From Tubulanus polymorphus (Eukaryota > Animalia > Nemertea), in assembly GCF_964204645.1 (NCBI RefSeq), contig NC_134025.1, positions 16,777,101 through 16,841,100 of the forward strand: a stretch of 64,000 bases of DNA. The letters are read 5' to 3'. Positions 13,561 through 64,000 of this stretch are shown here, piece after piece. Made by a program: the position numbers and the translations under genes. Position 1 is the stretch's first letter. Every line of letters starts with the position of its first letter. The notes under the pieces were generated by a model, which was not told the DNA's origin, searched no databases, and worked only from the letters and a program-made list of their open reading frames with translations.

Positions 13561-13876
13561 GCCAATTCATGCTTTCAGAATTAGGAGGAACAAGCATTGC
13601 GTGCCATAAAATGATTAATTGATAATAGTTTACCACAATTGGCAATATATTATAGAAGATATCATGTCTATATCCGATACTATTAACATGGAAATCAAAA
13701 CATACATTTATAATGCATGTGCGTAATTGATTAACGAGCAAAAGAATAAACTATAGGCCTCTTATGATACTAGGTTACTATTAATACAATAGGTCCTATC
13801 GAATGAACTTCTGTTATTTCCTGCGTTAGAATCTTGAAATAGGTCTTAAGCTATGCTGTTCAACTATATCATTTAC

Positions 13877-14151
13877 CGATTTCCTCTTCATCTGTTGAAC
13901 TTGGTTGTTCATTATGATTCAATGCCAAATAACCTGCAGCTGACTTGGGCTCCCTTAACCTTTCGTTATCGCATGCCCGCTTTAATGCTATTTGAGCAGC
14001 CACAATTCGTTTTCTTTCCGTCAAAAGTAGGCATTTGTAACAGTTGCAGTAGCGAAATTTACAGAAATGTTTATGTCCTTTTACATCTAACATAAAGCCA
14101 TGGTTTCGACATCTTGCACATTTTGGAGAAGTTCGTCTCAGTACATTCCCA
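13877..14151 (-). CDS. Dmrt: Dmrt-family transcription factor, DM-domain exon
   Basis: [51 protein letters not shown] has all DM zinc ligands plus the recognition helix; acceptor tcttttcAG (14152-3) and donor G|GTAAAT (13875-6); 5' exon/start not resolved. Confidence 0.93.
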
Positions 14152-14481
14152 CTGAAAAGAGAAGCAAAAATTAACAAGGTGCCCATGGGCACTGTTAGAT
14201 TCAGGGCAAAAGTTAGTGAATTGAAGGAGTTAATCATATCCACCATACTAGACCATACAATGGTTTAGTAAGGTGCTCTAATCTGCTTATACTTGACATA
14301 AAAGGAAATGTATGATATAAAAGTATAATGTAATTAGATTTTAAATGACAAACAGTTGTTTATACAAGGAAGAGAAGGTAAATACATAACACATTTTAAG
14401 TAGGCCTAATAGATTTTGAAATGAAATACATATAAGCATTATAAATCAATAGCCTCCTAATAAATTATAAGGTTTCCTTAA

Positions 14482-40239: not shown

Positions 40240-41352
40240 ATGTCGGTACCGCATAACGTAGATCATGGAGCTGAGGCTTACCTCAGTGACGATGAACTAA
40301 GCACATCGGGCGAGGGGTTGTTTTCAGACAACCTCAATAAACTCATCCAAAAGTCGTTAAAAGATCAGGAGAGTCGTCGATCAAGTGATAGCCGGTCAAG
40401 CATTCCGCCACCAAAACCCTACAATATTGGGCAAAATTTTAGAATTTGGTTGGAGCGGTTTAATGACTATGCAGATGAGGTTGGGATAAGCGCCATCAGG
40501 GATGGGGGTTCGTCCCGGAAGAAAAACCTTAAAATGCGGCTCGATCATGAGGCTTATCAAGCAGTGTCGAATTTACAGCTCCCAGTTGATATGTCATATA
40601 TGGATTTCTGCGACCGGCTGCATGACCGTTTTAAACAGTCTCGTACTGTGAGAGACTATAAAATGTTGCTGAAAGCACGGGTTCAGCGTGGAGGGGAGTC
40701 CCTTGAACATTACGGAGATGAATTACAAGAACTGGCCCGGAGCGCATATCCTACCACTTCAAGGGAAGTGCAGGACGAACTGGCTAGGGACCAGTTCCTG
40801 GCAGGGGTGAACCTACCGGATACCGCCAGGGAGTCGCTGATGATAGAGGACCCGCCCTCAATTTTGGACGCTGTACGACATGCCAGGAGTAGGCTCACTG
40901 CGAAAAAACTGACGGAAACCCTCTCCAGTTCGGCAGAAAGCCGCAAAAAGAAAGTTTCTGTGGTACAGCAGGGGGCTACCGAGGGCCAGATTGCAGCAGT
41001 CAGTGTCCCCCATAATGACATGACTAAAATCCTTCAAATGGTTGAGTCCTTAGCCACACGAATGGATAAGATGGAGCTGAGGATGAACCAACCGTCACAA
41101 CGGAGCGACGACATATGCTGGCGCTGTCGCGAGCCTGATCATCCTGGCAGTCAGTGCCCCCAGGTCCAGTGTTACAACTGCGGACAACGAGGACATTATT
41201 CCCGTCAATGCCAAGTCACCAAACCATCGTCATCGGGAAACGACAGGAGGGGCTCTCAGAGGGGCAGGAGAACCCCGACCCAGTTAGACTACCCTACCCT
41301 GGGCAGCCCCATGATGCGTCAAGAAAATATCAAATACCGCAAAGACGTATGA
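40240..41352 (+). CDS. gag: Gypsy Gag with two CCHC zinc knuckles
   Basis: RVQRGGESLEHY..ARDQFLAG; CWRCREPDHPGSQC and CYNCGQRGHYSRQC. Confidence 0.93.
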   Translation: MSVPHNVDHGAEAYLSDDELSTSGEGLFSDNLNKLIQKSLKDQESRRSSDSRSSIPPPKPYNIGQNFRIWLERFNDYADEVGISAIRDGGSSRKKNLKMRLDHEAYQAVSNLQLPVDMSYMDFCDRLHDRFKQSRTVRDYKMLLKARVQRGGESLEHYGDELQELARSAYPTTSREVQDELARDQFLAGVNLPDTARESLMIEDPPSILDAVRHARSRLTAKKLTETLSSSAESRKKKVSVVQQGATEGQIAAVSVPHNDMTKILQMVESLATRMDKMELRMNQPSQRSDDICWRCREPDHPGSQCPQVQCYNCGQRGHYSRQCQVTKPSSSGNDRRGSQRGRRTPTQLDYPTLGSPMMRQENIKYRKDV

Positions 41353-44300
41353 GGCAACAGATTTTGGGTGATGTGCCTGCAGGTGACTGACACCTAACCC
41401 AGATGGCTGGTATAATGGTATCACCTGAACTGGAACCACTCCCCCATACCTATGAATCAGAAATTGAAACTGAGATAGCCACACCACCAACAATGGCCGG
41501 GGAGGGTTCACCTCTCTCTACAACCAGCGGAGGGCGCTCAGGTGTTTACACCGTGGGCGATGTAATCGTTCATGACTCAGGACTTTATTGTACTGGCCAA
41601 ATAAATAGCCAAGATGAGGTCTGTATCCTTCTCGATACGGGCGCTGCAGTCACTGTCCTAAAGACCTCAGTCTGGGCAGCGTGTAACCCAACAAAGTCGG
41701 TAAGCGAGCTGCAAAAAGCCGAGGGATGCCTAAGTACAGCTAATGGACAGGATCTTCACCTCAGAAGGATAGAGATAGTGCGGCTTACATTAGGGGGTCG
41801 TGACTTTGATATCTCCATGGTTATTGTAGATGATATTACTCAAGATTGTCTACTTGGTAGTGATTTCTTTGAGTCCTTCAACTGCAAGATTGATTTTGAA
41901 TTAAAGGAGCTTACTTTTGGCACGGTTAGCATTCCACTTTGAAATCAAGAGAGTAAGGCCAGATGCTGCAGGATTTTCGCCAGTAAGACCTTGTGTATCC
42001 CGGCGGGAACAGAGATAGTCACTAGTGGTATAATGCGACGTAAATTTGTGGGTAATAACTCGACTTCAGGTACCATTGAGAACTTAAAGTCATCAGGTCT
42101 GATGGCTGCCAAAGTTGTAGCAACCCCATCGAAGAGTCACACACCGGTGCGACTAGCAAATTTCACCGATTCACCACAGTGGATAAAAAGGGGCCAACCC
42201 ATCGCCTGGTTTAGTCCAATTGAGTCCCTGACCTTGTCCCGGATTAATGAGGGCGATAAGAGTGACCATGACCGTTTAGTCTCACAGGGACCGATCCCTG
42301 AAGAAAAGGTCCAGTCCGTGCTAGATGACTTGCAGATTGCGGATATGGGGATTCCGGAGGAGACCAAAAAGGAATTGACCAGAGTAATTCGGAGCAACAT
42401 TGATGTGTTCTCAACAGGTGATTTCGATCTGGGGCGCACCAGCCTATTAGAACACGAAATTGACACCCAGGATACTCGTCCGATTAGGCAAAACCCTCGT
42501 CGAATACCACCTCATCAACAGAAATTTGTGTCGGACACGACTGATCAACTTCTAGAACAGGGTTTGATACGTGAGTCACATGGAGCTTGGTCAAGCCTGA
42601 TAGTTCTCGCAAAGAAAGCAGATGGCTCATTTAGATTCTGTGTGGACTACCGTAAACTTAATGAGGCCACGGTCAAAGACGCCCATCCATTACCGAGGGT
42701 TGACTCGACGCTTGAGACTCTTGCGGGATCAACGTGGTTTTCATCACTCGATCTTGCAAGTGGATACTGGCAGATGCCCGTGAGTGAGGCAGATAAAGCG
42801 AAAACAGCCTTCGCTACAGAAAGGGGCTTATTCGAATGGAACGTCATGCCATTCGGGCTAACCAATGCACCTGCCTCGTTTTCACGGCTGATGGCTCTGG
42901 TTTTGGATCCCGTAGCATGGAAAACATGTTTAGTGTATCTGGACGATGTTATTGTTTTCAGCCCTGACTTGGGAAGTCATCTTAATCGACTTGTCGAAGT
43001 TTTTGCCTGTTTCCGAGCAGCTAACTTGAAGCTGAAACCCAAGAAGTGCCACTTGTTTCGGAGGATGCTGAAATTCCTAGGTCATATAGTTAGCGGGGCT
43101 GGAATCCAGACCGATCCGGAGAAAGTACAGCGAGTGGTTGATTGGCCGGCCCCCTCCAACTTAACTGAACTTAGGAGTTTCATTGGCCTCGTTGCATATT
43201 ACTCTCGCTTCATTGAAGATTATGCATCGATTGCTCACCCGCTCTACATTCTTACCAAGAAAGGAACGCCGTTTCATTGGGGAGAGGCACAGGAGTCTGC
43301 ATTTCAGCGATTGAAAATGGCCCTTGCAAAACCACCAATTCTCAGATTCCCTGATTTCAGTACGTCGACAAAAACCTTCATTCTCGACACTGATGCCAGC
43401 AACTGGGCTATCGGCGGTGTCCTTTCACAAGAGGATAGCCAGGGGGTTGAGAGAGTTATTGCCTACAGTGGACGAACATTGAAAGGAGGTGAAGAAAATT
43501 ACTGCACGACACGTCGAGAGATGCTTGCTTTAGTAGACATGATCCATCATTTCAGACATTATCTGCTCGGCAAAAGGTTCCTGGTAAGGACGGACCACGA
43601 GGCCCTCAAGTGGTTAAGAAATTTTAAGGAGCAGGAGGGTCAGATTGCGCGCTGGAACGAGCGCCTTGAAGAGTACCAGTTCGATATTCAGCATCGGCTC
43701 GGAAGGCAACATGGGAATGCAGATGCCATGTCTCGTTTCCCAAAAAAGGTCAGACGTCATGGCAATTGCCCCAGTTGTGGACCGACTGAATCGAAACCGA
43801 TACGACGAATACAGGAACTGACAGGAACTGTTAAGCATGATTTGAACATGCGAGAAATTGAGAGTGCACAGAAAGCAGACCCACAAATCCGTACAATGGT
43901 GCTGAGTAATCAGCCAAAACCTACTACAAATGAGATGCGACAGTTCGGTCGTATAAGTAGGAGTCTGTTGGCTATTTATGAGCGGTTGTTAGTTGTGGAC
44001 AATGTGCTGTGTGTTACACCCATAACAGGGACTCGGTACACCAGGAACCGGATTGTACTTCCGAGTAAGTTAAATGAGACCGTCCTGAGGGAGTTACACG
44101 ATGGTTTTGCAGGGGAACACCTAGGTGAAAAGAAACTGACCAGAAAGTCAAAGAACGTTTTTGGTGCCCCGGCCTGAAAGGTATGGTGCGGAGATATGTC
44201 CAGAGCTGTAAGGCCTGCCAAACCAGCAAAAACCCACCTAGAAAGGCCAGGGCCCCACTCATCTCGACACCTATTGGCCGTGCAAACCAGCGTCTGCATA

Positions 44301-45473
44301 TCGACGTGATAGGGCCGATAAACCCTAGGACACGAAGAGGCAACCAGTATATACTAGTTGTGCAGGACGCTTTCACTAAGTGACCGGAAGCCTGGCCGAT
44401 GCGGAACCAGAAAGTGAAAACAGTGGCACGGTTACTCATCAATGAGTGGATCTGCAGATATGGTTGCCCGGAGAGCCTCCATTCAGATAAGGGCTCCAAT
44501 TTTACGTCGAGGGTGTTCAAGGAGATCAATCAGCTACTCGGCATCCATCGAACTTTAACCACCGCTTTCCACCCTCAAGGGAACGGACAAGTTGAAAATT
44601 TCAACAAATCGATCAAAGCGATGCTGACGGTGACAGTTGACGAGAATGGGAAAGACTGGGATGACCATCTCCCGGGATGCTTAATGGCATTCCGATCGAG
44701 TGTTCAGTCATCAACACAGGAGACCCCACCCTTTTTGACATTTGGACGTGAAATGAGCCTCCCGATTGATCTGATGGTGGGTAGCCCAGAGCTGGATCAG
44801 TCCACAACAGAATACGTCCGGTGTGTCGGGGCCCGACTTGAATCTGCCTATGATGGAGTCAGGGAGAGATTAACCGTTGCCCAACGGCGCCAGCGACAGT
44901 ATTATGACAGATTCACATCACGTGGTGGCTATCAAGTGGGTGACAGAGTCTGGCTATACAGTCACTATGTCAAGCCCGGGGAAGCCCCGAAATTCCATAA
45001 GAAATTATGGCCCGTTTGTAGTCACACAGCGCCTGACTGAGGTAAATTATCGCGTGGAGACTCTGTCAGGAAAGACCAAGACCAAAGTTGTCCACTTCAA
45101 CGACATGAAACCAGCCATAGTTAGGTTTGATGGTGGTGAAAACCCCCAGGTTCCCCGGAACAAACCTCCCTCCACTAGGCACGGCACCATGAAGCATGAC
45201 CCGGTCGCACGAGGACATAGTCCTTCAAGCTCGGAGGAGGAGGAGGAGGAAGAGGACCAGCTGATTCCGGTGGAACCGCACCCTCAGAATGGAAGGATTC
45301 GAGCCGAAACACCTGCTCGAGCTGAGCCACCGACTTCCGCTGGCTCAGAACAAGGTGAATCCGACGGAGAATCGGTAGATGAGGGACAACCTGCCAGGAG
45401 ACGGCTCCGACCGCGAGCTGCAATAAAGGCTCCTCCATGGCAGAAGGAGTTTGTGTTCAGTGGCTCCCAGTAA
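41235..45473 (+). pseudogene. pol: Gypsy Pol (PR-RT-RH-IN), -1 frame relative to gag, with stops and frameshifts
   Basis: LLDTGA, FCVDYRKLN, YLDD, LDTDAS, TDHEAL, HIDVIGP, HSDKG, GPF motif; TGA at 41388, 41940, 44381; frameshifts ~44140 and ~45005; slippery G GGA AAC at 41235. Confidence 0.93.
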
Positions 45474-45875
45474 CCAAGATGTCTGGATGGAAACTTGGGA
45501 CCGGATCCCGAAACAAAAGGGTAGAGAGATCTCAAGGGCCCTGAAAATGAATCGGTCGCCAGTCAAGTAGGCAAACAATGCTAACTCTAAGTGGTTTAGT
45601 AATGTTGGCTTGGGTTTGGGATTTCCCCTGTGCGGAAAGTTTGCTCAACTGGTTTCTCGAGTACCCTCAAATGGTTGTCGAGGTGCCGCATAGTTCAACT
45701 GTGATAGTTGGCACTTGCCCACTAGGGAAACTGATCACATACTTGAAGACTGGTGGATCAAATTTGGATATAGCCAAATGTATATACTCAAGATGTTTTT
45801 AGTCGATAGCCCACACATTTTATTAAACGAATTATTTGTTGTTTCTTCATAATAGTGAACCCTTGAGAAAGCAAA

Positions 45876-46691
45876 ATGGAAGCTGTCGAATTAGACCGAG
45901 TAAAATGTAGTTCTGCTGTAATCGGGAAGAAGCGAGCATTCAGTCGAGCCGTATGTGATTTTCTGCGACGCCCTGACACCGCACCACCACCAGACAGTCA
46001 TGAGTTAGTGGAAGCCGCAGAAGATGAACTTTTGAATCCTGCTTCATTGGTAACAGGAGCCGTGGTGATGGGTATTAAGACTGCCCTATCTAGGTCCCTG
46101 CCAAGGCTTACGCGGCCCAGATTCGACATGGCCACAATGTTAAAATCCTTGGTACACAAAGTCGGTGGTGATCCTGAGGACTTAAACGGGAAACTACAAA
46201 AGATTGAGTCTCGAGCAATCCGAACACGTCCGCCCGTGCTACTGCTGTCGGACTCCATGTTTAAGAATCTGAGAGCCGACTCCCTAGTGACTCCGATCAG
46301 CCATCCAGGGGAGCGAGTCAGCGGTCTACTGGACTATCTCAAGGGAGTCCAGGTGAACTGTTCAGCCGTCGTATTCAACCACGGTATGAACCACACGCGT
46401 GAGTTTGGGAGACACACTACTATGGATCTCCAGGAGCTCCGTAGTCTGTTGCGGAAGAGGTACCCCAAAGCTCCGCTGTATCACCTGGAAGTCCCTGTCC
46501 CTCCCTGCCTCGAAGGGAACGCAGGTGCTGTGCGGCGCATCGCCCGAATAAACCGCAAAGCGAAAGAGGTTGGCTTCATTGAGATACCACACCCGGAGCT
46601 GAAACCTACCAATTTTAATGGTATCCATTATAAGGGTCAGGTTCCGGAGTGGATCATGAGGCACATCCTGTGCTATATAACCCGCGGTTGA
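45876..46691 (+). CDS. Gypsy ORF3: SGNH/GDSL hydrolase-like protein
   Basis: Intact 271 aa; VLLLSDSM (block I), SHPG (II), VVFNHGMN (III), FNGIHY (V). Confidence 0.75.
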   Translation: MEAVELDRVKCSSAVIGKKRAFSRAVCDFLRRPDTAPPPDSHELVEAAEDELLNPASLVTGAVVMGIKTALSRSLPRLTRPRFDMATMLKSLVHKVGGDPEDLNGKLQKIESRAIRTRPPVLLLSDSMFKNLRADSLVTPISHPGERVSGLLDYLKGVQVNCSAVVFNHGMNHTREFGRHTTMDLQELRSLLRKRYPKAPLYHLEVPVPPCLEGNAGAVRRIARINRKAKEVGFIEIPHPELKPTNFNGIHYKGQVPEWIMRHILCYITRG

Positions 46692-49600: not shown

Positions 49601-52175
49601 ATTAAGTGCGATTAATTTCATAACTGGAAGGTGGTTTTATAACTGGTAAGGGAGGAGTTGTAGTGTTTGCTCTGTGAAGGTTATGTTCGGTAGCTAGCAA
49701 ACCGCAAGTGTGTCTGTACAATATGGCCGATAAATAAAGGTGTTATATTTTATTTCCTGATTCAATCCGTTGTCATCCTCTGGACTTGGCCCACTCATCC
49801 ACCACAGATACACCTAGGTTTTACTGCTTTTTAGCCCGATGAAAGTAGTAAATTCAGCATTAAAACTTATATATCTCCCAGAATTTCTATCCGATTAAAA
49901 CCAAACTTGCTCAGTATGTCGTCGGTAAAAAGAGTATTGAGATTCTAGAAGTATTTATGCAAATATGTAAATTAGGCTAATTTGCATACCTCCTAACTAA
50001 TTAATACACACTACAATTATACCATTAATACACTATAGGCCTATGAGTTTCTTTTTCAAGATAAATGTTACTGGAATACATCAAACATCAAATATTTTGA
50101 GGTAAATACAATGAAGACATCGAACATCTAGGTTATACCAGTTACCGTGGTAACCATAAGGTGAGTATTGAGGAGGCCATCTTGAATCTAACTAACTTCC
50201 ACTTAATTATAAATAACTCATTCGATATGGCCTTTTAGGCCTATATTTTTTGCAATAATTCCTCTTCTAGAATAGGCCTATCTCAATATTCCTAAGATCA
50301 TATTCCTGCATTTTGAGATGCTCAGATACTAATAATAGTCATTATATTTTCAGACCCTCACTCGCTGCAGAAGAATCAGACAAGCATTTGAAGAGATTTA
50401 TCAAGTTCAGAAAAAATGAATGTATTAAAATGAATGTGTAAAACCCTTGTTATTCTTTCAGAGATCCCTTAAAAGAGAACTGGAAAAAATATCTATATCA
50501 TGATATCTCAGATTGTGGTTCGCAAGAAGGCGGCCATCTTGGTTTATGTTGATATTTCATTGGAAGTGATTAATTTCAACAAAGTATGCCAAAAATTGAT
50601 CCCAGAAGATAAGATGTACAATCGTGAACATTAGGACATACGTATTCGCATCGATCATTTCACAACGTAGCCGATCAGTGAAAATAATCCTAACCAAAAA
50701 TGTTTCAGTCATCAGTATGACCACCCATGAAACATTAACACCTCATAGTCATTTAAGCTATATTGGTTTGCCTGATGGAGGGATACTGATGGAGGTTTCA
50801 GGAGTCGAAAGTCTTTTTTACTAAAACTCGAATTTTTACTAGAACTCGAAAGGCCTTAGTTGTAAAGTTTTTCTGATTTTGAGTAATACATTCAACAACA
50901 TCAAGGGGATAGACCTAGGTAGGCCTATAAGAGGTTAGATTTAGGTGACCAACCTCATTTAGCTCAAAAAACCATTGATTGGGTGTTTTAGGCCTACTGC
51001 ACTACTGGCGGCAGTTACATTGCAGTGGTAGGCCTAGGAGGCCTCGAGTCAAAAAAGGAAAGACAAATAAGTAAAAATTCATTTCAGGAGCTATCCTAGC
51101 TTTTCCTTTAATTGTGAAGATGAATATTTCAACTATTTAGGCAAAGGAGATTGGGAAAAGTAAGCTTTTGGTTGGGAAAAATTTTGAGCAAAACAAGGCC
51201 TGGACTCTTGTGGAAAATACTAAAAAATTTGCCATTCGATAACCATTATTTTGCTTATACTTGGCCGATTTCTTAATAAAGTATGAATTTATTGAGTAAC
51301 ATTGTCGTTTTAGTTGCTAAATTGCCATTTAGACAGTAGCAACTAGGAGTCCAGGGACACCATGCCCACTTGGGAAGTGGTTTCAAATGCTCAACAATCT
51401 AACAATTTCAATATTCAACGCCCCTGGACCCATAAACAAAAACCAATGACCTTGAAACCCACCAACAATCATAGATCATTTCAGCAGCTACGATTTTGTA
51501 ATTGATTGTGATAACAAAATATGCCACGTTACCAATCTAATATGGAAATACTAAGTTGCGTTACCATTCAACACCCCCTGGTGACCATATGCAAATCCCA
51601 ATGACCTTGAAACTCTCCACAATCATAGAACATGTCATGAATTACAACTTTGCAATTGATCATGGTAACAAAATATGCCTAGGTACCAATCTAATAAGGA
51701 AATTCTAAGTTATTCTACTATTCAATGCCCCCTGGTGACCATATAGAATAACTAATGTCCTTAAAACTCACCACAATCATATATGATGTCATGAGCTACA
51801 ACTTTGCAATTGATTGTGGTTACAAAATATTTATAGGTACAAATATAATATAGAAATACTAAGTTATTGTATTATTCAACGCCCCCTGGTGGCCATATAC
51901 AAAAACCAATGACCTGAAAACTCACCAAAATCATAGAACATGTTATGGGCTACAACTTTCCAATCGATGGTAGAAATACAATATGCTTAGGTATCAATAT
52001 AATGTCGAAAAACTTTTTCCCACCTACGAATCAGTACTGATGACACCAACAGACCTGCCAACCTTGTGTCTGACTAAATCAGAACAATTTAGTAATAGGA
52101 AGATGTGGGTTTCAGATCAGAGTACTAGAGTACTAGACACCACTCATCATCACAAGTAATTTTTTTTCCTAATAA

Positions 52176-55100
52176 ATGGGAGAGAGTGAGTACCAGACAG
52201 AAAACAATAATGTTAATAAAAATCAATATTATTGCCCATATTGTAAAAAATACATCGATAAATCTAATAAATCTAAACATGAAAAATCTTCAAATCATAT
52301 AAAAAATGTAATAGATTTTGAAACTCCAGAAAATTCCAATGAAAGAAAAGAAAGATTAGAAAATATGAATGTGGATGAAATAAAATGTGAAGTTTGTAAT
52401 GAATTTATAGTAAAAAGGAATTATAATAGACATCTCGAATCACAAAAACACCGCCAAAATTTGAGTAATAATGTTTTAGGAAAAGATTATTTTGATGATA
52501 AACCTCAACAAGTAAAAAAATCAACTTCAAAAACTAAATCCATTTCAAATAAACCCTACATGGAAAATGTTAGAAATTATATTGATTCACTAGAAATAAA
52601 AGATACAATTGAAATTTTAGAAACATTACGTAGTAAAATTGGTCCTGCAGCTATTATATTTAGATTTTTTAAAGGAACAACAATAGAAGATTATATTAAA
52701 TTTAATGAAATAATAGAAAAAATACTAGATTTGATAACAGATGTTGAATATCCAAAAATTAGTATCTCTGGGAAAGTAAGTTTTATTAAGTCAGAAGAAA
52801 AAATGAATTATAATATTCAAACACACTCTGATGAAATAATTTCAAAAACACAAATAAAAGAGAAGTTAGAAAAAATATTTAATGAATTTAAACGTCATAT
52901 TGAAGAAAGATATTTTGAGGGTTCTGGCTTAACATTGAATGAAATTATATATTTAGATTTAAATGTTTACAATACAAAACTATAAAAATGATACCCAAAA
53001 TAGAAAAAATTAATAATTTAAAAATAAATGTATTCGAATTAATGCAATTACCAAAGACAAAAGGTGAAAATATTAAAGATTATACATTGGAAGCTTTATA
53101 TTTAACAGAATATTATGATGATGAAAATGCTATAGATTTGTTATATTACAAAAAAGATGAAAATGAACATTATATGTGGTTAAAACGAATTGATTTATTC
53201 TTTAGAACAGAAAGTGATCATCATCGTAAAATTTATGTATGTAGAAAATGTTTATCTAAATTTATGACTGAGAATACATTATTAAAACATAAAGAATTAT
53301 GTGATAATAAAGATTTTTGTAAATTGATAATGCCAACAGAAAAAGATTATAAATTGAAATTTACTAATCATAAATTTAAGAATATTGTTCCATTTGTAAT
53401 TTATGAGGATTTTGAATCGTTGAATAAAGAATTAACTGATCAAGATAGAAAAGAAATATATAACAAAAAACAATTATTAAAATCAATGGATAAAGGAAAT
53501 GAATTAAATAAAGACACAATACAAGACCCACCAATTATAAATACAATTTAAAAAGTTCATCAAAGAGCTGCTGCTTATGGAATTTATATAAAATCAAATT
53601 ATCCTGAATTATATGAAAGTCAATATATTTCTTTTAGAGGTGAAAATGTAGTTAATGATTTTTGTGATAAAATGATTGAATTAGAAAGTGATTTTGCAAA
53701 ATTATTAAACAAAAATAAAAGAATAGTTATGACAAAAGAAGATGAAATTGATTTTAATTATGCAACTCATTGTTGTTATTGTGAAAAACGTTTTTATTCA
53801 TTTGATAAAAAAGTTAGAGATCATGATCATTTGAATTCAAAATATCGTGGAGCTGCTCATGAAGATTGCAATTTACAAGCTAAAAAAGTAAATTTCGTAC
53901 CAATATTATTTCATAATTTATCAGGATATGATACCCATCTATTTATAAAACAATTATCGGGAAAATTGGGCGCAATTAATCAAGAAATAGAAGAATATAA
54001 TGCTATGAATGAAGCAAATGTAAGAAAATATGATTTTAAACTATTAGCTAAAACATCTGAAAATTATATTTCATTTCAATTTGGTTGCATTAGATTTTAA
54101 GATTCTTATAGATTTCTAGCAAGTTCATTAGATAATTTATCAAAAAGTTTAGTTGATAATGATTTTGTTATAACTCGATATTATTATCCAAATGAACAAG
54201 ATTTTAAATTATTGAGATATAAAGGCGCAATTCTTATTCATTTTATAAAACACACAATGATTTTAATGTAACAGAATTATTAAAAGATCAATTTTATGAT
54301 CAATTAAAAGAGGAGTATGTGAAAGACGAAGTGTTTAATAGAACATTAAATATTTGGAACCATTTGAAGATGAAAAATCATGGCGAATTAGTTGATTTAT
54401 ATTTAAAATCAGATGTTATGATATTGGCTGACATATTTGAAAAATTTAGAGAAGTTAATTTGAACCTGGCAATGTGGTTTAAAATGTACAAATGTAGAAT
54501 TAGATTTATTAAAAGAACCAGACATGGTTTTATTATTTGAAAAATCAATTAGAGGTGGAATTAGTGGTGTTATGGGAGATAGGTATTTTAAAGCAAATGA
54601 TGAATATGAATTATTATATATAGACGCCAATAATTTATATGGTTGGGCAATGATGCAACCTCAACCATATAAAAATTTTATATTAACAGAAGTTGAAAGT
54701 GATGATAAAACTAATTGGGAAAGCGCAATTATGAGTTTAGAAGATGAAGCACCAATTGGTTATTTCTTTGTAGTTGATTTAGAATATCCTGAAAATATAA
54801 AGTTTAAAACAAGAAACTTACCTTATTGCCCAGAACATTTAACTATAGATGATAGTTATTTAAGTGAATACCAGAAGAAAATAAAACCGAAAGATCATGT
54901 TTTTACAGAAAAATTAATACTTACTCAAAATAATAAATACAATAATATTGTTCATAATAGAATGTTAAAATTTTATCTAAAACAAGGAATGAAATTAAAG
55001 AAAGTACATAGATATATTGAATTTAATCAATCGAAGTGGTTAGAAAAATATATAGATTTCAATACTCAACAGAGAACAATATCAAAAACAGATTTTGAAA

Positions 55101-56949
55101 AAGATTTCTTCAAATTAATGAATAATAGTTTTTATGGTAAAACATGTGAAAATATTAGAAATAGAAATGATATTGAATTAGTAAATAATTCTGAAAGATT
55201 AAGACATTTACAATCAAGTCCTAGACATTTAGGAAATAAAAGATTTGAAGATTATTTAACAGCAGTTAAATTAAAAAGAACATCAATGAAATTTAATAAA
55301 CCTATATTTATTGGTTCGACTGTTTTAGAAGTATCAAAATAATTAATGTATGATTTTTATTATAATGTTTTACAACCACTTTTTGGGGAAAAGCATATTG
55401 AAATATTATATTTTGATTCTGTAACAGCTGAGACCCCAATATTATTAAAATGTAATGATAAAATATTGATAAGAAGAATTTCAGAAATAATTCCAAGACA
55501 AAATGAATGTTATATTTCATATGGAGAAAAAGAATTAAAACAAATAAATGGTTTAATGGATGTTTGGACAAGAAATGGATGGAAAAAATTAAAGAATATT
55601 ATTAGGCATAAAACAAATAAGAAAATCTATAGAGTTAGAACTAAATTAGGATTTGTAGATGTTACAGAAGATCATAGTTTAATGAAACGAAATGGTGATG
55701 AAATAAAACCAACTGATATAAAAATTGGAGATGAATTATTACATAAAAGATTTTTCCAAAGAATGAATCATATGTCATTTGATGAAATTATTGATAATAT
55801 TTATAATATAGAACCCGAAACATTAGAAGAAAAAGAATATTTTATCAAAGGATTTTTCATGGGTGATGGCTCAGCAGGTGTGTATAATTATGTTTGGGGT
55901 AATAAATATTGTTGGTATTTATGCAAACTTATATGCAGACTTAAAATTATTAGAAAGAATTAAGAAATTCTGTGAAGAAGTTTATCCAAATAAAACATTT
56001 AAAATTATGGATGTTATGAAATCATCAGCAGTTTATAGAATACTTGTGAATAATCCTAAAGATTTTGCTATAAAATATAATGATGAATTCTATAATCATG
56101 CAATAGTGAAAAGTAATACTTCAACTAAAGAAAAGATAGTTGCAGATTATGTATTAAATGCAAAGAATAATTTAAGAAAATGGTTCTTCATTGGATTCTA
56201 TGCCGCAGATGGAACTAAAAAATTTACAAAGGATAAAAAGATAACCTTCGCGCAGAAAGAAAAAGTTGCTATATCAGGATTAAATATATTATGCAGTTCA
56301 TTAGGATTTAATATGAATATAGAATTAATTAAATCTAAACCAAATTGTTTTAATTTAAGGCATGTAGAAAAAGAATTAACAGAAGAAGTTAAAGATTTAT
56401 TTGAAATATATAACCCAACAGATTATGTTTATGATTTATCAACAGATGATGGAACATTCAATTCTGGGTTCCCATTAATCCAAAAAAATACCGATAGTTA
56501 CATACTAAAAATCAAGACAAATGACATAACAAAAGACTTAAAAACATTAAAACATCATTTTGATTTTAGCAATTATCCCAAAGATCATGAACTATTTAGC
56601 AATGATAATAAAAAGATTCCTGGTAAATTTAAAGATGAATTAGGGGGTGATGAAATGATTGAATTTGTTGGGATAAGAAGTAAAATGTATAGTTACAGAA
56701 CAAAAGATCATGAAGCTAAAAAGTTAAAAGGAATAACAAAACATGTAGTTGATAGACTTACATATAGAATTTCAAGATTATATAAAGTGTTTATATAAAT
56801 CAATTGTAATGAAACACAAAATGAATTGTTTAAGATCAGAAGATCACGAGATGTACATTAATGAAGTTGAAAAAACTGGTTTAAATCCATTTGATGATAA
56901 AAGGCATATTTTAGATGATGGTATAAAAACATTACCTTATGGTCATTAA
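52176..56949 (+). pseudogene. polB: Protein-primed family B DNA polymerase with N-terminal zinc fingers, endonuclease-VII-like insert and an intein
   Basis: FVIYEDFES (ExoI), VRDHDHLNSKYRGAAHEDCN, FHNLSGYD (ExoII), SIRGG, YIDANNLYGWAM, KLMNNSFYGK, YFD|TDS, GKFKDE, KMYS; several stops and frameshifts. Confidence 0.95.
55418..56489 (+). mobile_element. Intein with LAGLIDADG homing endonuclease at the PolB YxD/TDS site
   Basis: Starts SVTAETPILL, block B VDVTEDHSL, LAGLIDADG motifs FIKGFFMGDGS and FFIGFYAADGT, block F YVYDLST, ends IQKN followed by Thr; one frameshift ~55925-55935. Confidence 0.95.
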
Positions 56950-58260
56950 AACATAAAATCAATATCATCATACTCGAAATCACTATTGGCTTCTTCATTT
57001 TCATTTAATTGTTTAGGTTCTTCTTCCATTCCATTTTTCTCATTTAAATAAAGTTCTATCTTGTTCCACATTTCATCTCGCTCTCTTTGTTTCTTTTTGT
57101 TTGTTAATTCATCAAATGGAATTATAATATCGATGTTTAAATAATTTACAATCTTATTTAAAAAGAATTCATAATTAATTGAATCTGTTATTCTATTTTC
57201 CAAATGATACATTAATATTTGTTTGAATATTTTTTTTATATTTTCCGTATCTTCTTCTGTTAATTTAGGTTTTTCATAATAATCGTTAAATAATAAATAT
57301 AAATACATTTTCTTTTGTTTTGTGTTAAATGTTGACGGAATAATTGTTTTTATAATATCTTTTTTAGTTATTTCACCATTTTTATTTTCTATTATTTTCA
57401 TTTTTTCAAGCCATTGCATATATTCTGGTGTATGATCTTCTATAGAAAATATTTTAAAAATTTCATCAAGATAATTTAATTTTGGATCTATGAGAAAATT
57501 TCTAGTTTTTTCTTCACCCAATAAATTCTTTTGCTATCCACATTCATTACAAAATAACACAGTACCTTCTTGTCTTAAGGTCGCATAAATACATTGTGGG
57601 CATTTTTGTTTATAATTTATTGGTAATAGATCTTCATTAAGCTCTTGGTATTTTCTTACGTTTTCTTTATGTTTTATTGTTCTATTATGTAGATTTGAAT
57701 AACTTGTTGTAATAATCAATTTACAATATTTACAATATTGTTTTTCTTGTTAATTCATTATATTGTTTTTCTAACTTTTCAACTGTTTCTTTATTATCTG
57801 GTAAGGTTTTCTCATATTTTATTTTTTCTAATAAATTATCTTTTCTTTCATTGAATTCAGTTTCAAATTTATTAGAAATTGTATCTATATGTGCTTTACG
57901 AAATTGATGATTCTCCCAATCTTCTATATTTTCAGGGCTATATTTTATTCGACAAGGCTCGCAGAAATGATCTTTTATATTATCCTTATCATAGAATAAG
58001 AAAGGTCTTTTCCAAATAATTTCAGGTTCAACTTCAACAGAATTACTATTACTTTCATTACTATCAACATTAGCCGTTGCGCCATTAATTCTACACTTCT
58101 CTGAATGTTTTTTAACATAATTTCTTGAGAATAATTTATTACATTTTGGGCAGTTTATTTTAGGGGGTTTATAATTTTCATCATGTTTTTTCATATGTCG
58201 AGCCATATCACTTTTTCTTAAAAGTTCACCACAAATTTCGCATGCTATCTTCTCATCCAT
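56946..58260 (-). pseudogene. Multi-zinc-finger protein fused to a VLTF3 (poxvirus A2-like late transcription factor) domain
   Basis: C2H2 fingers (CEICG..H, CPKC..H, CEPC..H, CKYC..H..H), zinc ribbon CPQC..FCNECG, then KLNYLDEI..SINYEFFLNKI..KKKQRERDEMWNKI; one frameshift ~57745 and one stop 57534-6. Confidence 0.72.
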
Positions 58261-58328
58261 TTATTAAGGAAAAATTTTATTAAAATTAATTTTTAGTGAT
58301 GAGCGGTAATTGTTTTATGTTATAAATA

Positions 58329-59117
58329 ATGGTAGAATTAAAAGAATACAGAATATTTGTTGATTCTAGAAAACTAACAAATTATAAATCACATAATTTA
58401 CTAGTTCAATTAGATAGAGAATTTAAGAATTGTGTTGATTTAAAATTAGTAAATATAAGTTTATGTAACTCATTTTACAATATATCGGATAAAACTGATG
58501 AACATAGAATCCTTTTTATTTTTGATAAAATTAGAAATAAACGGTTTCAACTTTATCTAACACCAGGATTATATAATTTAGAAACATTAGCGCAAGAAAT
58601 TAATCGGAAAGCTCGGATTGTGTTAGGTAGTGATTCTAAATTTTCAATTAGATTTATAAAAAGTGATAGTTCTGATAAAATTAAAGTAAAGTTTGATGAT
58701 GAAAATATTAGTCCTGATTCATTGATGTTAAGAAGACATGCTTACGCGGTAAAAAAACCTTTTGCTTAACTGTTAGGAATTCCTCCAGATAAACTTATTG
58801 TTGGAAACATATACGGTATATCAAATTTAATACCTTTTACACATTTTTATATTTATTGTAATTTAATTGATCCTACAAAAACATTCGAAGCAGCTAAAGA
58901 TATAACTTGTAATTCTAGTATACTAAATATTTTACCATTGAAGAATGTTAAACAATTTGGAACGCAACTAAATTATAATTTAGCTGAATGTGATTTCAAA
59001 CCTTGTATTCCACATTTCAATAATTTTAAATTAGAAATAAGAAATCATAATGGATATTTAATTGATTTGAATAACTTTCCTGTAATTTATGAATTAGTTA
59101 TAAGATGTAAAGAGTAA
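58329..59117 (+). pseudogene. Polinton minor capsid protein (penton-like), one in-frame stop
   Basis: IFVDSR..NSFYNIS..PGLYNLETL..FYIYCNLID..ILNILPL..LIDLNNFPVIYELVI; TAA at 58767. Confidence 0.75.
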
Positions 59118-59133
59118 TTTTTTCATTATATAA

Positions 59134-59448
59134 ATGAATATAACTGTTGGACCGAGTATATGTTTTGGGTTTGTTTTTAAACGTGAGAAAGAAATGAAAT
59201 TTAACATTAATGATGTAATCACACAAATCAAAAATATTGCATTTTCTAATGAAACAACATTTAAGTATGAAAAAACAATAGATAAAGAAACTTTAAATGT
59301 AGAATAGATTACTAATTTAATTAGAGAATCTTTAAGATTTTATGAATTAGATGAAGATTTTATCATCGATGATATTAAAAAAATAATAATTGAAATATAT
59401 ACAAATGAAACTAGTAATGAAATAAATGTAGAATTAATCATAAGTTAA
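59134..59448 (+). pseudogene. Small Polinton ORF, unknown function, one internal stop
   Basis: Shared start motif TAAATG; frame open apart from TAG ~59305. Confidence 0.5.
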
Positions 59449-59486
59449 CTAAATATTTTGATGATAGTAATTTTTTTGATAAATAA

Positions 59487-60289
59487 ATGAGTGATAATAA
59501 GTGGATAATAACTGGATTACCGTAAAAACCGGCATATAAGTCAAGTTTTTAACCCTTGATTTTACCACTAAATTATTGACCTCGACTTATACGCCGAGTA
59601 CAGTTTTCTACGAAGTATTTTCAGGTCACAAGAAATATTGAATCTACCAGACAAAAAAGACTATAACAGTGCTATAACAGTTTGAATAATTATTCATGAT
59701 AAATAAAGTTATTTAATGAAAAAAACTTCTTTCATTTTGACACAGCTTCATTTAAAACGATGTATTCATATATGCGCGCTCATAGCAGCGCTTAATACAC
59801 TAGGCTATATATAGCATGTGACTCACACTACTGTATCACTGTATGGTAGTGTATTATACCTGAGTGTATGTAACAGTCTATTGATTAACACACAGCAGCA
59901 ATCAGGCTGACGCGTGGCGGCGTGCGTGAAGGCACACATCGTTATCAAAACAAACTATTCAATACAATGATACTAGTAATTATTCTTCTAAGAGAAGGGA
60001 CTCGACTTATAAGCCGGATATGTTAAAATCATAAAATGTAGGTCTAAAAATCGACCTCGACTTATACGCCGCGTAGACTTATACGCCGGTTTTTACGGTA
60101 TATAATGGAGCATTACTATCAGTTGGAACTGTTGGTTATTCAATGGTATTAAAAAAAGTATTTAAAATGGGAAGTGTTAATGTTGATAGATTTGATATAA
60201 ATGATATTTTAAAATTAACATTAGCAGTTACTTTATCTAATTTAACTATTGATTATTTGGAAAAACAAAAATATATTCCTCCCATATAA
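59487..60289 (+). pseudogene. Small hydrophobic Polinton protein split by a MITE
   Basis: MSDNKWIITGL|YNGALLSVGTVGYSMVLKK...YLEKQKYIPPI restored after removing 59520-60100. Confidence 0.75.
59520..60098. mobile_element. Tc1/mariner-pogo-type MITE
   Basis: TA|ccgtaaaaaccggcatataagtc ... gacttatacgccggtttttacgg|TA. Confidence 0.9.
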
Positions 60290-60313
60290 ATGCGTAATTA
60301 TTTTGCTAAATAA

Positions 60314-60733
60314 ATGGCTTCTGCAATTGTAACTATTATAGGATCGGCAAATGTTAACGCTTTGGCATTTACTGGTGGTGGTTATTTATTTAAACATATT
60401 GATAAAAATAGTTCATTAGGAGAACAAAGAAGACATAACTTAGCATTAGAAAAATATAATAAAGCAGCAGAAGAATATAGAGAAAAGAGGCAAAACTATA
60501 TGGATTATATTAACAAAGAATTATATGATCAGAAGATTTCACATAGAGATTTTCAATCAGTTGATGCAATGAGCTTATATAACGCAGTAACAAATACAGA
60601 AAAATTACATCTATACAAACCTAAATTATCAGATTATTATACCCCAAGTAAAGAACAACAGAAATATGAAATAATATGGATTTTAGGTGGAACTGTTATT
60701 GTTATATTTGTAGCATATAAATTTACTAATTAG
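60314..60733 (+). CDS. Polinton protein with hydrophobic termini and coiled coil
   Basis: Intact 139 aa; NALAFTGGGYLF..EQRRHNLALEKY; C-terminal TM segment; shared start motif. Confidence 0.75.
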   Translation: MASAIVTIIGSANVNALAFTGGGYLFKHIDKNSSLGEQRRHNLALEKYNKAAEEYREKRQNYMDYINKELYDQKISHRDFQSVDAMSLYNAVTNTEKLHLYKPKLSDYYTPSKEQQKYEIIWILGGTVIVIFVAYKFTN

Positions 60734-60753
60734 TAATTTTTTTTTCTAAATAA

Positions 60754-61188
60754 ATGGAAGATAAAGTTGATAGTATTGATATCATTCCTCATGATATAAA
60801 TAAAACTAAATTAAAAATATATTTAGAAAAACAAATATTAGAATTTGAAAGTGACTTAAAGATAAAAAAGAAAAAGTATTAAAAAAGTAAAATTATATAT
60901 TATTTGATTATTAGTGGTTCGGTTACAATTAGTTCTGTAATAACATTTCTAGCAATATTCAGTCCATTAACACCTTTAGCTATATCAATTGGTGTGTTAG
61001 GTTTAAGTTCAAGTGTATTAACTGGTATAAGTTCAAAATTAAATATAAAAAGTAATAAAGAAAAAATTAAAACTAATATAAAAGAGATTAATAAATCAAA
61101 GAATACACTAGATTATATAAAAAGTTTAAATGGCCATATAACAGTTGAAGAACAAGATAAATTATTAAAAGAATTAATAAATTATTAA
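60754..61188 (+). pseudogene. Two-TM Polinton protein, one premature stop
   Basis: ATG after shared motif; in frame with 60904-61188 hydrophobic ORF. Confidence 0.65.
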
Positions 61189-61204
61189 TTTTTTAATTAA
61201 ATAA

Positions 61205-62555
61205 ATGGTAGATAGTTTTCCAAAAGCTTTCCAATATAATAAATCAATTAAATATAATATTCCTGCAATAGATTTTAATAAAGATATTACATATAGAAAT
61301 GAAGTTTTAGATTCATTAACTAATTTAGAAATTTATGTTACTGAAACTAATAATTTTAATGCAAAGATGGAAAATATATTTCATGTATATTTAATTAATT
61401 TTAAAAAATTGAAAGATGAAAAACAATGGTTATTAAAATCTAATATGAAGTATTGGCAGAACCAATTCAATTTTGCTGTTTATTGTGCAACAACAGGAAG
61501 CGGAATTAGTTGGAATGATCATTTGAATAATTCTATAATATAAATTAATTCAAAGTTTATTTAGATTTTATACATACTTTCAAATCAGAATAATATTAAA
61601 TGAATTAGAGTGCGCTTTACCAGGATCTAGATATTTTAAAGAACTAGATAATAATATTAATTTATCAAAGTTTTATAAAATTTGTAATGAATTAAATATA
61701 GATATAAATAATTCTGATTTTAGAACAAAAATTGGAACGATAAGATCACTTCCTTGCCCTAAAAAGATTGCAGAATATTGTGCACTTCCCATACCATCTA
61801 ATAGTTTTTATAATATCTATAGTAATAAATTAGGTTACATTAAATTTCAATAAATTACCGACATTTTATGATAATTTAAAACAAGAAAACAATAATGGTT
61901 GGGTTTATTTCATTTTAGAAAATAATGAAGGTTTTACAAAATCAGGTATACAAAGAATAAATCAATCTATTAGAACTTATTTGATATGTATTCTAGGTGC
62001 ACAAGTTGAAACAAGATCACCGATAATTGGAAATTTGAATACATCATTCGGTACACAAAAACAATTTAAAGTTTTATTTGAAGATTCCATACATAATGAT
62101 AAAAATAGATCGATTCCAGAAAACATTGTAAGATATCAAAATTATTTAGATAAATCACATATTAGATTAAATTATTGTATAGGCCCTAATCTATTAATTA
62201 TTTCTAATGATTTAGTATTAAAGATGGGAAACATAATTGGTTATAATAATCTAATTAAAACTGCAACAATAAATAATTCATTTGGATTGAATTATATAAA
62301 TAAAAAGATTATTACTGCTCCAAAATTAATGGAAGGTGTAAAAAATAAAAAACACATTCAATCAACAGAAACTAAAACTAAGAATATTAAATTAAATAAT
62401 GATTCTAAAATAAAAGATTATAATACATCAGAAAATATAAAAACTGATATTATTCAACATGATATAATTAAAACTGATAATGATAATAAATCCCATGAAA
62501 ATACTAAACTTGTATAGGAATTGTAATCGGAGCAATATTATATTTTAAATTTTAA
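61205..62555 (+). pseudogene. Polinton conserved hypothetical protein, fragmented
   Basis: MKYWQNQFNFAVYCATTGSGISW; RINQSIRTYLICILGAQVETRS; stops and frameshifts. Confidence 0.65.
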
Positions 62556-62571
62556 TTTTTTTATTATATAA

Positions 62572-64000
62572 ATGGATGTAGGTGGAGAAGATATTGGAAT
62601 GGATAATTTTGCTGAACCTGGCATAACTGATGAACAACCACCTGATTTTGATGAAACAAGTTTTAATGATGGTAATGAGCCAGAATATAATAATAATTTG
62701 AATATGCCTGATTATATTAATAATGCAGAATCACAATTAAATCCTGAAAATTTAGACCCAGATTTAGTAAAACAAGATTTAGATAATTTAAACAAAATAC
62801 CTAAATTAGAAGATTTAATTGAAAAATCTAAACTTAACATAAATGATGAAGACGTTGGACTTTTAGCAGATCAATTAAAATTTTTAGATAATGGTAAATG
62901 TTATTATCGTTTGAAAGGTGATTATTATATTGATATCACTTATAAAAATAATAAAATAAAATATTATCAGATTCAACTTTAGAAAAATTAAAACCAGATA
63001 GAATTAAAATAATAAGTAATAGTAATGAAATAACTGATGTTACACAAAAAGAAATAGATGATAATATAGACGTATTTAAACAAAGAATTAATGAATTATT
63101 TGAAATAATCAAAAAGAAATCAGAAACAGAAACAACTTCTGAACAGAATATAACTTCCAAAAATAGTAAACTTAAATCAAATAAAGTTCCAATTGAAAAA
63201 CTTTTACCGAATGGATTACTTGATGCAACAGATCAAGAATTAGAAGATTTAGATATATTTTCTGATAAAGCAATTAGAGAAATTATTAGTATAAGACTTG
63301 CATCTGATAAAATTGCACATAATAAAAGTATAAGAGATCAAAAAATTATGTATTTGGAAAAAGAATTAACTGATAAAAATAAAGAAATAGAACAATTAAA
63401 ATTAGACAGAGATAATAAAGTTATTGAAGAAATCGAATTTAAAAAAAGAAATGCATATTTAGAAAAAGGAATTAATAATTTAAAGGATAATTTAGAAGTA
63501 CAAAAAGAAGAAATTAAATTATTATTAAAATCATATGATTATAATATAAAAAGATTAAAAGTTATTTTTAAAGATTTATTGATAAAACCAAATTCTGAAA
63601 TATCAATGAAAGATAGAATAAAGTTATTATTTAAATTAGAAGGAATAACAATTCTTTCAATTCTAACAGCTGTAACTATGTTATTTACAACAATTGGTTT
63701 AGCTATATCAAATGCTTTAAAATCTACACCTACTCCCAATAAACCGGATAAACCCCCGAATGATAATAATTCTATACAAGATAAAGTTAAGGATGGTTTA
63801 AAGAAATTAGCAAAATATTTATGGGAACTATCTAAAAAATCTGCTGCAGCATTGCCAGGAGTTATTGCATCAATTGTTGGTTTTATATTGAAATCTGCTG
63901 GGAATATTCTTAACTTTGCTGCTGAACATATTATTTTATTTTTAATTACAGTTGTAAGTGCTATTATTTTTGGGTTAGTAAATATGATATCAAAAAGATA
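62572..64000 (+). pseudogene. Large acidic/coiled-coil/membrane Polinton protein, frameshift ~62960, runs off window
   Basis: Second frame open to window end: RIKLLFKLEGITILSILTAV..ALPGVIASIVGFILK. Confidence 0.7.

Follow-up and report, generated by a model that had tools for sequence, protein, structure and literature searches.

An intein with a LAGLIDADG endonuclease domain at the catalytic motif of a multi-copy Polinton-type DNA polymerase in an animal genome

The window, that is, the whole stretch of 64,000 nucleotides that was analysed, carries an intein with a LAGLIDADG domain at the pol-c site of a protein-primed, Polinton-type DNA polymerase gene. We consider it very probable that the polymerase is a multi-copy one whose intein is predicted to be self-splicing when intact and is likely to home into empty copies. 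The copy in the window is itself dead, a decayed genomic fossil.

In the window sequence, motif C of the polymerase is interrupted and reads YFD/S...KN/TDS (slashes mark the junctions). The reading frame runs IEILYFD/SVTAETPILL across the 5′ junction at 55418, and the 3′ junction at 56489/56490 is YVYDLSTDDGTFNSGFPLIQKN/TDS, the frame there being GFPLIQKN/TDSYILK. The features of the intein, all on the + strand, are the following.

55418..56489, +, intein of class-1 type with a central LAGLIDADG endonuclease domain, frameshifted copy, 1,072 nt
55418..55441, +, block A, SVTAETPI, with the Ser1 nucleophile (from the sequence)
55658..55681, +, block B, DVTEDHSL, with its Thr and His (from the sequence; VDVTEDHSL with the preceding V included)
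55850..55873, +, first LAGLIDADG motif, GFFMGDGS (from the sequence)
55920..55940, +, frameshift of the window copy (from two overlapping frames and from reads)
56193..56213, +, second LAGLIDADG motif, GFYAADG (from the sequence)
56424..56489, +, blocks F and G, YVYDL...GFPLIQKN, with the block F Asp, the penultimate Lys and the terminal Asn

The intein also holds the motif MKSSAVYR, and the V-T-E-D-H-S-L positions of block B are invariant or nearly so in an alignment of 56 relatives. All the class-1 residues are present, namely Ser1, the block B Thr and His, the block F Asp, the terminal Asn and the +1 Thr. The penultimate His, common but not universal in inteins, is replaced by Lys, which is the norm for this allele family: among 137 related inteins, 105 end in K-N and 25 in H-N, a His-Asn end being found in P0004, P0324, P0328 and P0332. 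In profile searches, the N-terminal piece matched NCBIfam TIGR01445 (intein_Nterm) at 32.4 bits for a cut-off of 24.5 (E 1.4e-7), PI-PkoII (2cw7) with E 7.4e-5 and, under the cut-off, Pfam Intein_splicing (E 2.9e-4); the C-terminal piece matched Pfam LAGLIDADG_3, likewise under the cut-off (E 1.9e-3). The identification made in a sequence-only reading of the window, a pol-c-site intein with a LAGLIDADG domain, is thus confirmed by the split motif C, by blocks A, B, F and G and the two LAGLIDADG motifs and, for the Hint domain, by the TIGR01445 match.

The boundaries of the intein are fixed in two independent ways, by empty relatives and by empty-allele reads of the sequencing run X6 described below. 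The intact, intein-free relatives L002 and L003, whose exteins are 85% and 75% identical to that of the window, read IEIMYFDTDSYILK at the site, which gives YFDTDS in their proteins P0139 and P0140. When P0139 (from L002) is aligned to the window by tblastn, it covers the gene in six pieces at 61-85% identity and omits the insert exactly between its residues 1181 and 1182. The polymerase and the surroundings in which it lies comprise:

52176..56949, +, pPolB1-like Polinton-class protein-primed family B DNA polymerase, pseudogenised (tblastn with intact P0139)
53735..53878, +, Endonuclease VII-like (HNH-type) insert in the polymerase, without a Hint domain (PF02945, E 1.3e-3, under the cut-off)
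56946..57533, -, VLTF3-like gene fragment of the element (PF04947, E 3.7e-6, above the cut-off)
58326..59117, +, DUF5901-like ORF, split by a stop (lead match for 58326-58769)
52050..64000, no strand assigned, AT-rich Polinton-like element of 21-26% GC, multi-copy in the species and continuing past the window end
13869..14264, -, host exon with a DM (doublesex/Mab-3) domain (PF00751, E 3.3e-19)

Beyond the frameshift of the intein, the polymerase frame changes at least four times, near 52.98, 54.24, 54.46 and 56.75 kb, and three in-frame stops lie outside the intein, near 53.55, 54.10 and 55.34 kb, so that the window polymerase is a pseudogene. This state adds to the sequence-only reading, which had recognised the frameshift of the intein, seen as two overlapping frames near 55.92-55.94 kb, and had also named the host correctly as a protein-primed Polinton-type polymerase: its relatives P0001 and P0324 match PF03175. 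Polymerases 35-37% identical to it sit in the viral contigs L165 and L166, which also encode an rve integrase, an A32 ATPase and a double-jelly-roll capsid protein. The Endonuclease VII-like insert is found again in the relatives P0328 and P0201, where PF02945 is above the cut-off. A region that we take to be VSR-like was used in the pPolB class label. The labels pPolB1 and pPolB2 follow Jeong et al. 2023 (PMC10748475) by resemblance, not by tree placement.

The GC content is 33-50% upstream of the element as against 21-26% in the AT-rich block. Within the 12 kb of the element that lie in the window, no integrase, packaging ATPase, capsid protein or protease was recognised, and membership in the Polintons therefore rests on the polymerase. 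No element-scale inverted repeat was found in 50.5-64 kb, the right end of the element lying outside the window. The VLTF3-like and DUF5901-like genes belong to giant-virus-associated families. PHROGs, PDB, Atlas and pairwise comparisons gave the downstream ORFs no identity, bar the DUF5901-like lead; the latter ORF may, from its resemblance, be a minor capsid protein, for which further comparisons gave no confirmation.

Several other observations were made along the window. At 59518-60100 the Polinton-like block is interrupted by a 583-bp element whose 25-bp terminal inverted repeats are 96% complementary and which has no second copy within the window. A T-run followed by TAAATAAATG or ATATAAATG stands ahead of many ORFs of the element (52155-52191, 59108-59142, 59466-59502, 60723-60763, 61184-61220 and 62546-62580) and might be a shared promoter or start motif. 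A very high-copy host repeat of 154-bp tandem units (51341-52049) directly adjoins the left edge of the element. Further upstream, a nearly complete Gypsy-type LTR retrotransposon (gag, protease, RT/RNase H and integrase) occupies 40114-46691 and includes a further ORF at 45867-46691, and BEL/Pao remains are also present in the rest of the window.

DM domains are known only from animals. The DM-domain exon (E 3.3e-19) marks the window as animal DNA, as the sequence-only reading had held. The window stretch was detected in five of the 11 sequencing runs listed, four of which, from two studies, carry the same species label (X1, X2, X4 and X6); the marine metagenome X5 gave only short low-depth pieces and was set aside. 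X6 is a raw DNA run of the same species from the other study, about 12% of which was read. At 88% likeness, the polymerase was covered to a depth of about 270-375 and the flank next to it to 19-58; at 80% likeness, the depth was 127-265 over the intein and 395-746 over its flanks. A precise empty allele is given by 71 reads, starting at 45 different places, that jump over exactly 1,072 nt at the insertion point. The polymerase family is thus multi-copy in the species, with the intein in roughly half of the copies. Full and precise empty alleles coexist in it.

At the place of the frameshift, about 164 of the 172 covering X6 reads differ from the window, so the frameshift is not common to most copies. 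In a tally of 27 intein variants, which leaves 109 further rows outside and ignores transition bias, 11 of the 16 at intermediate frequency are synonymous for an expected 19% (p 1.6e-5); among the near-fixed differences from the window, 4 of 11 are (p 0.13). This pattern fits selection on the intein protein among subfamilies together with decay in the window copy.

It is highly improbable that the AT-rich block is a free virus or a contaminant mis-joined to the host sequence at 52 kb, which would take the intein out of animal nuclear DNA. GC falls sharply there, from about 35% to 24%, at a junction that adjoins the 154-bp repeat, whose depth in X6 reaches about 9,600; no read or contig bridging about 52.05 kb was found among those listed, and the close relatives L002 and L003 are short metagenome contigs. 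Against this stand the many stops and frameshifts and the inserted 583-bp element, as expected of a long-resident genomic copy, the divergent multi-copy family present in all four runs with that species label (X1, X2, X4 and X6) from the two studies, and the related intein-plus polymerases on contigs of up to 1 Mb.

At least six further clusters of protein-primed polymerases, several of them intact, have the same intein at this site. Intact intein-plus polymerases are P0001 (1693 aa), P0008 (1603 aa), P0324 (1537 aa), P0328 (1504 aa) and P0332 (1509 aa); P0004 is a C-terminal polymerase fragment with a complete intein, and P0009 a fragment whose cluster has 55 members. The P0324 cluster has 136 members, on contigs of up to 1 Mb, and one carrier cluster, that of P0008, belongs to the distant pPolB2 class. 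Among these carriers, an animal host is established for the window copy alone. Seven of the 198 sampled pPolB rows carry the intein. The window intein is 43-63% identical to the other Polinton inteins and at most 45-47% identical to any non-Polinton intein. PF14528 is above its cut-off in P0001, P0004, P0008, P0009, P0324, P0328 and P0332, and both LAGLIDADG motifs are kept in every full-length lineage across 43-66% divergence; no mini-intein was seen among the Polinton copies. An AF2 model of the relative P0009, built from a 56-row alignment, reached a pLDDT of 91. Its top Foldseek matches were all endonuclease-bearing inteins (TliVMA, E 8e-18; 2cw7; PI-PfuI; PI-SceI), and it also matched I-DmoI with a target TM of about 0.7. 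None of 22 viral contigs with related pPolBs held the intein, and scans of viral contigs with the window piece, P0001, P0008 and P0009 gave a single weak locus.

Two side observations concern the site itself. In P0001, YGD (residues 1181-1183) precedes the intein, as in giant-virus PolBs; this triplet is outside the 30 commonest site types of 191 empty pPolBs and is seen in P0553, an empty member of the P0324 cluster. Related inteins also occur in the type II topoisomerases P0065, P0066, P0079, P0114 and P0117, where the site TDQD/.../TDG mimics the PolB motif.

Inteins and exteins were placed in separate trees. Inteins without a LAGLIDADG-like motif (24 of 78 and 29 of 166), two near-duplicates and 79 of 276 candidate polymerases without the needed motifs were dropped beforehand. 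In each of the four trees, a single branch set the Polinton inteins apart (SH-aLRT 100; FastTree 100, 100/100; 100/99). Their exteins are not one clade: five changes are forced by starred branches in a set of 51 of the 198 rows, and extein monophyly was rejected by the AU test on 25 rows, both for all seven carriers (p 2.6e-48) and for the six pPolB1 rows (p 1.2e-5). Intein-free polymerases are near relatives of the window, of P0001, of P0008 and of the pair P0328/P0332 in each case, and the six pPolB1 carriers all fall within one 16-row clade (support 96). The P0008 extein shares 80-82% identity with intein-free members of a cluster named Mytilus, and matches P0001 at only 23% (E 0.06), with no significant likeness to pPolB1 exteins. 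Its intein is 48% identical to that of the window and was grouped with the window and P0001 inteins in two trees (96/83 and 83/66), a third tree giving no resolution.

Within pPolB1, intein and extein identities are near-equal (63/59, 50/47, 44/46, 66/67 and 77/78), a match that fits vertical descent with loss as well as it fits homing. A single recent capture by the window element, as the sequence-only reading would have it, is not supported: since intein and extein identities track each other within pPolB1, and since the window intein shares the GC (25% against 24-26%) and the GC3 of its host gene, the capture is old, and a recent one was rejected on base composition and on the depth of the Polinton clade (43-63%).

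The nearest non-Polinton inteins sit in RNA-primed PolBs (PF00136/PF03104). Many are on GVMAG giant-virus contigs, at up to 43% identity, and their carriers include a protein named Mimiviridae sp. ChoanoV1. In a set that lacks Mimivirus itself, metagenomic giant-virus-type PolB inteins are about 40-45% identical to the window intein and named archaeal pol-c inteins about 23-34%, in line with the giant-virus kinship put forward in the sequence-only reading. Identities of 39-41% are seen for two contigs of archaeal bins, of which L084, the one that was placed in a tree, fell with the viral inteins. A phage collection gave one distant match, at 27%. As candidate donors, L084, L086 and L087, all from prokaryotic bins, were rejected: they grouped with the virus-type inteins and were treated as virus-like. 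Separately, we note a 39% intein match at 3001-4026 of L085, a 63-kb contig of a Promethearchaeota (Asgard) bin.

With archaeal inteins as root, the best tree and every one of the 200 bootstrap trees counted place the Polinton clade within the virus-type inteins. The nesting branches have supports of 91/93, 80/93 and 88/54, long branches meet at the root, and the sister group of the Polinton clade differed between trees. In an AU test on 29 rows, virus-type inteins as a clade without the Polinton ones were not rejected (p 0.075). A giant-virus donor is likely from the nearest inteins and from the nesting, yet the branches are moderate and the AU value is as given. The direction proposed at the outset, from giant virus to Polinton, is accordingly favoured by these data and falls short of significance; co-infection as the route of transfer is pure inference. 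Alternatively, Polinton and giant-virus inteins may be sisters from an older pool, or the flow may have run from Polinton to giant virus, which would alter the origin of the element and not its nature. We hold this to be unlikely, if a serious contender: the AU result allows it and the placement is unstable across trees, but virus-type inteins stood together without the Polinton clade in 0 of 200 archaea-rooted bootstrap trees, and virus-type carriers are abundant (1,032 matches in one search, and an estimated 890 or so viral contigs in another) compared with the seven pPolB rows in 198.

Indirect signs of homing were found in the P0324 cluster. Full and empty copies were compared as proteins in 15 of its 136 members (seven intact intein-plus, six empty and two not covering the site), which may span more than one individual, species or assembly. 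Over 900 columns, full and empty copies show 10 fixed differences, every one of them between residues -6 and +44 relative to the site, and six of the 10 lie within -14..+15 (p 1.6e-7). The empty copies vary most at the site, with nine of 73 variable columns (p 3.3e-4), and the full copies do not (two of 24, p 0.19). Three site types occur among the empties: YTD/CDS, YFD/TDA and YGD/TDA. The full P0324 copies read YMD/TDSFVLSV, and the same sequence is found in the intein-plus P0004 lineage, the extein of which is only 67% identical. The 1,191-residue members of the cluster, tried as simple precise empties, are empty but differ at the site. As a separate observation, P0546 and P0548 are otherwise intact polymerases in which motif C reads D-C-D-S instead of D-T-D-S.

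The clustering of differences around the site fits homing with co-conversion and the survival of altered targets, as far as aligned proteins can indicate; recombination with foreign intein-free segments is the rival reading of the same pattern. Extended to the whole family, that rival would make the intein a passenger, which entered an ancestral pPolB1 once, was kept because splicing is essential and lost its homing, empty alleles arising when intein-free Polinton lineages swap the motif-C segment by recombination. The matched divergence of intein and extein within pPolB1 and the confinement of all six pPolB1 carriers to one 16-row clade (96) agree with this, the P0324 site tract could have arrived with an empty segment and not with the intein, and Polintons are reported to swap pPolB genes (PMC10748475). 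It nevertheless appears improbable to us, since both LAGLIDADG motifs are kept in all full-length lineages with no mini-intein among the Polinton copies seen, since the presence of the intein in pPolB2 (P0008) requires at least one lateral jump, and since selection against cutting is the simpler account of the three altered site types in the empty copies.

We incline, by a little more than an even judgement, to a still-active intein of giant-virus origin in animal Polintons, one that splices, homes across pPolB classes and drives an arms race over recoded sites. Under the main explanation, that of the opening paragraph, a single old capture from a giant-virus-type RNA-primed PolB, at the same motif-C site, would have been followed by inheritance in a single subclade of pPolB1, where the intein was repeatedly lost and gained anew, and by at least one jump into the distant pPolB2 class. 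In intact copies, Ser1, the block B Thr and His, the block F Asp, the terminal Asn and the +1 Thr would excise the intein and rejoin D/TDS, by an acyl shift at Ser1, transfer to the +1 Thr and cyclisation of the Asn, steps modelled on class-1 intein chemistry (PMC7765530); the polymerase would be functional only after splicing. The freed endonuclease may then cut sibling Polinton copies at their empty sites, and repair templated by an intein-plus copy would convert these copies together with flanking codons, as in the homing model (PMC10710043). Integrated germline copies or replicating extrachromosomal genomes could be the venue. Surviving empty copies would become enriched for altered target sites.

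Pol-c inteins are described from RNA-primed PolBs of archaea and large viruses. The pol-c inteins of Nucleocytoviricota PolB, that of Mimivirus among them, occupy the same site, after the first Asp of motif C, which reads YGD/TDS in the Mimivirus intein (Ogata et al. 2005) and YFD/TDS in the window (PMC549080). The Mimivirus intein has 351 aa and the intact Polinton copies 337-354; Ser1, the Asn end, the +1 Thr, the block B Thr and His and the LAGLIDADG domain are common to both (PMC549080). The window intein differs in that its host is a protein-primed Polinton-type polymerase, not the RNA-primed PolB of a large virus, and in that it lies in animal DNA, in many copies and in a clade of its own.

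The closest precedent comes from Gallot-Lavallee et al. 2023 (PMC10710043), who report inteins in viral-like DNA polymerases encoded on nuclear scaffolds of Klebsormidium nitens, Tetrabaena socialis and Honda fermentalgiana; there too, an endogenous viral DNA polymerase gene has brought an intein into the nuclear genome of a eukaryote. The hosts described there are two algae and one protist, whereas the window is from an animal and its intein sits in a multi-copy Polinton-type element that has both full and empty alleles. Nuclease domains inserted in Polinton polymerases, namely HNH and VSR endonucleases, have also been described (Jeong et al. 2023, PMC10748475; Krupovic et al. 2024, PMC11161782), and one sentence of the latter paper suggests that they result from intein invasions (PMC11161782). 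As presented in these reports they are nuclease domains only (PMC10748475, PMC11161782), while the window polymerase carries a complete Hint splicing domain at its catalytic motif and, elsewhere in the gene, the Endonuclease VII-like insert as well. The main text of Jeong et al. 2023 (PMC10748475) contains neither "intein" nor "LAGLIDADG", and that of Bellas and Sommaruga 2026 does not contain "intein". The fungal VMA1/PI-SceI and Prp8 inteins share the combination of Hint and LAGLIDADG folds and homing between full and empty alleles in a eukaryotic nucleus, but sit in single-copy host genes, unlike the intein described here (PMC5784728).

According to published surveys, metazoan genomes lack inteins (Green et al. 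2018, PMC5784728), and the sequence-only reading likewise treated such inteins as essentially unreported; in the main texts of freely accessible papers, with Repbase and InBase outside the scope, no Hint-type intein was found in a Polinton or other protein-primed polymerase, nor in an animal genome. Judged from sequence comparison, the intein in the window is of the known pol-c kind, for which both the class of host protein and the kingdom are new, and the evidence for its ongoing homing is indirect. The finding extends the range of complete inteins to animal DNA and to protein-primed polymerases, reveals a whole unreported clade, and gives the 2024 suggestion of intein invasions of Polinton polymerases (PMC11161782) a concrete case. 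The intein may serve as a sequence marker for asking if animal Polintons and giant viruses have occupied one cell together, and if recombination takes place between Polinton classes during co-replication. Multi-copy families in which both full and empty alleles are intact offer a natural system for homing, co-conversion and target-site resistance. Should the lineage prove active, metazoan nuclear DNA would have its first case of a working intein with a homing cycle, and the intein would be genetic evidence that Polintons have shared cells with giant viruses.
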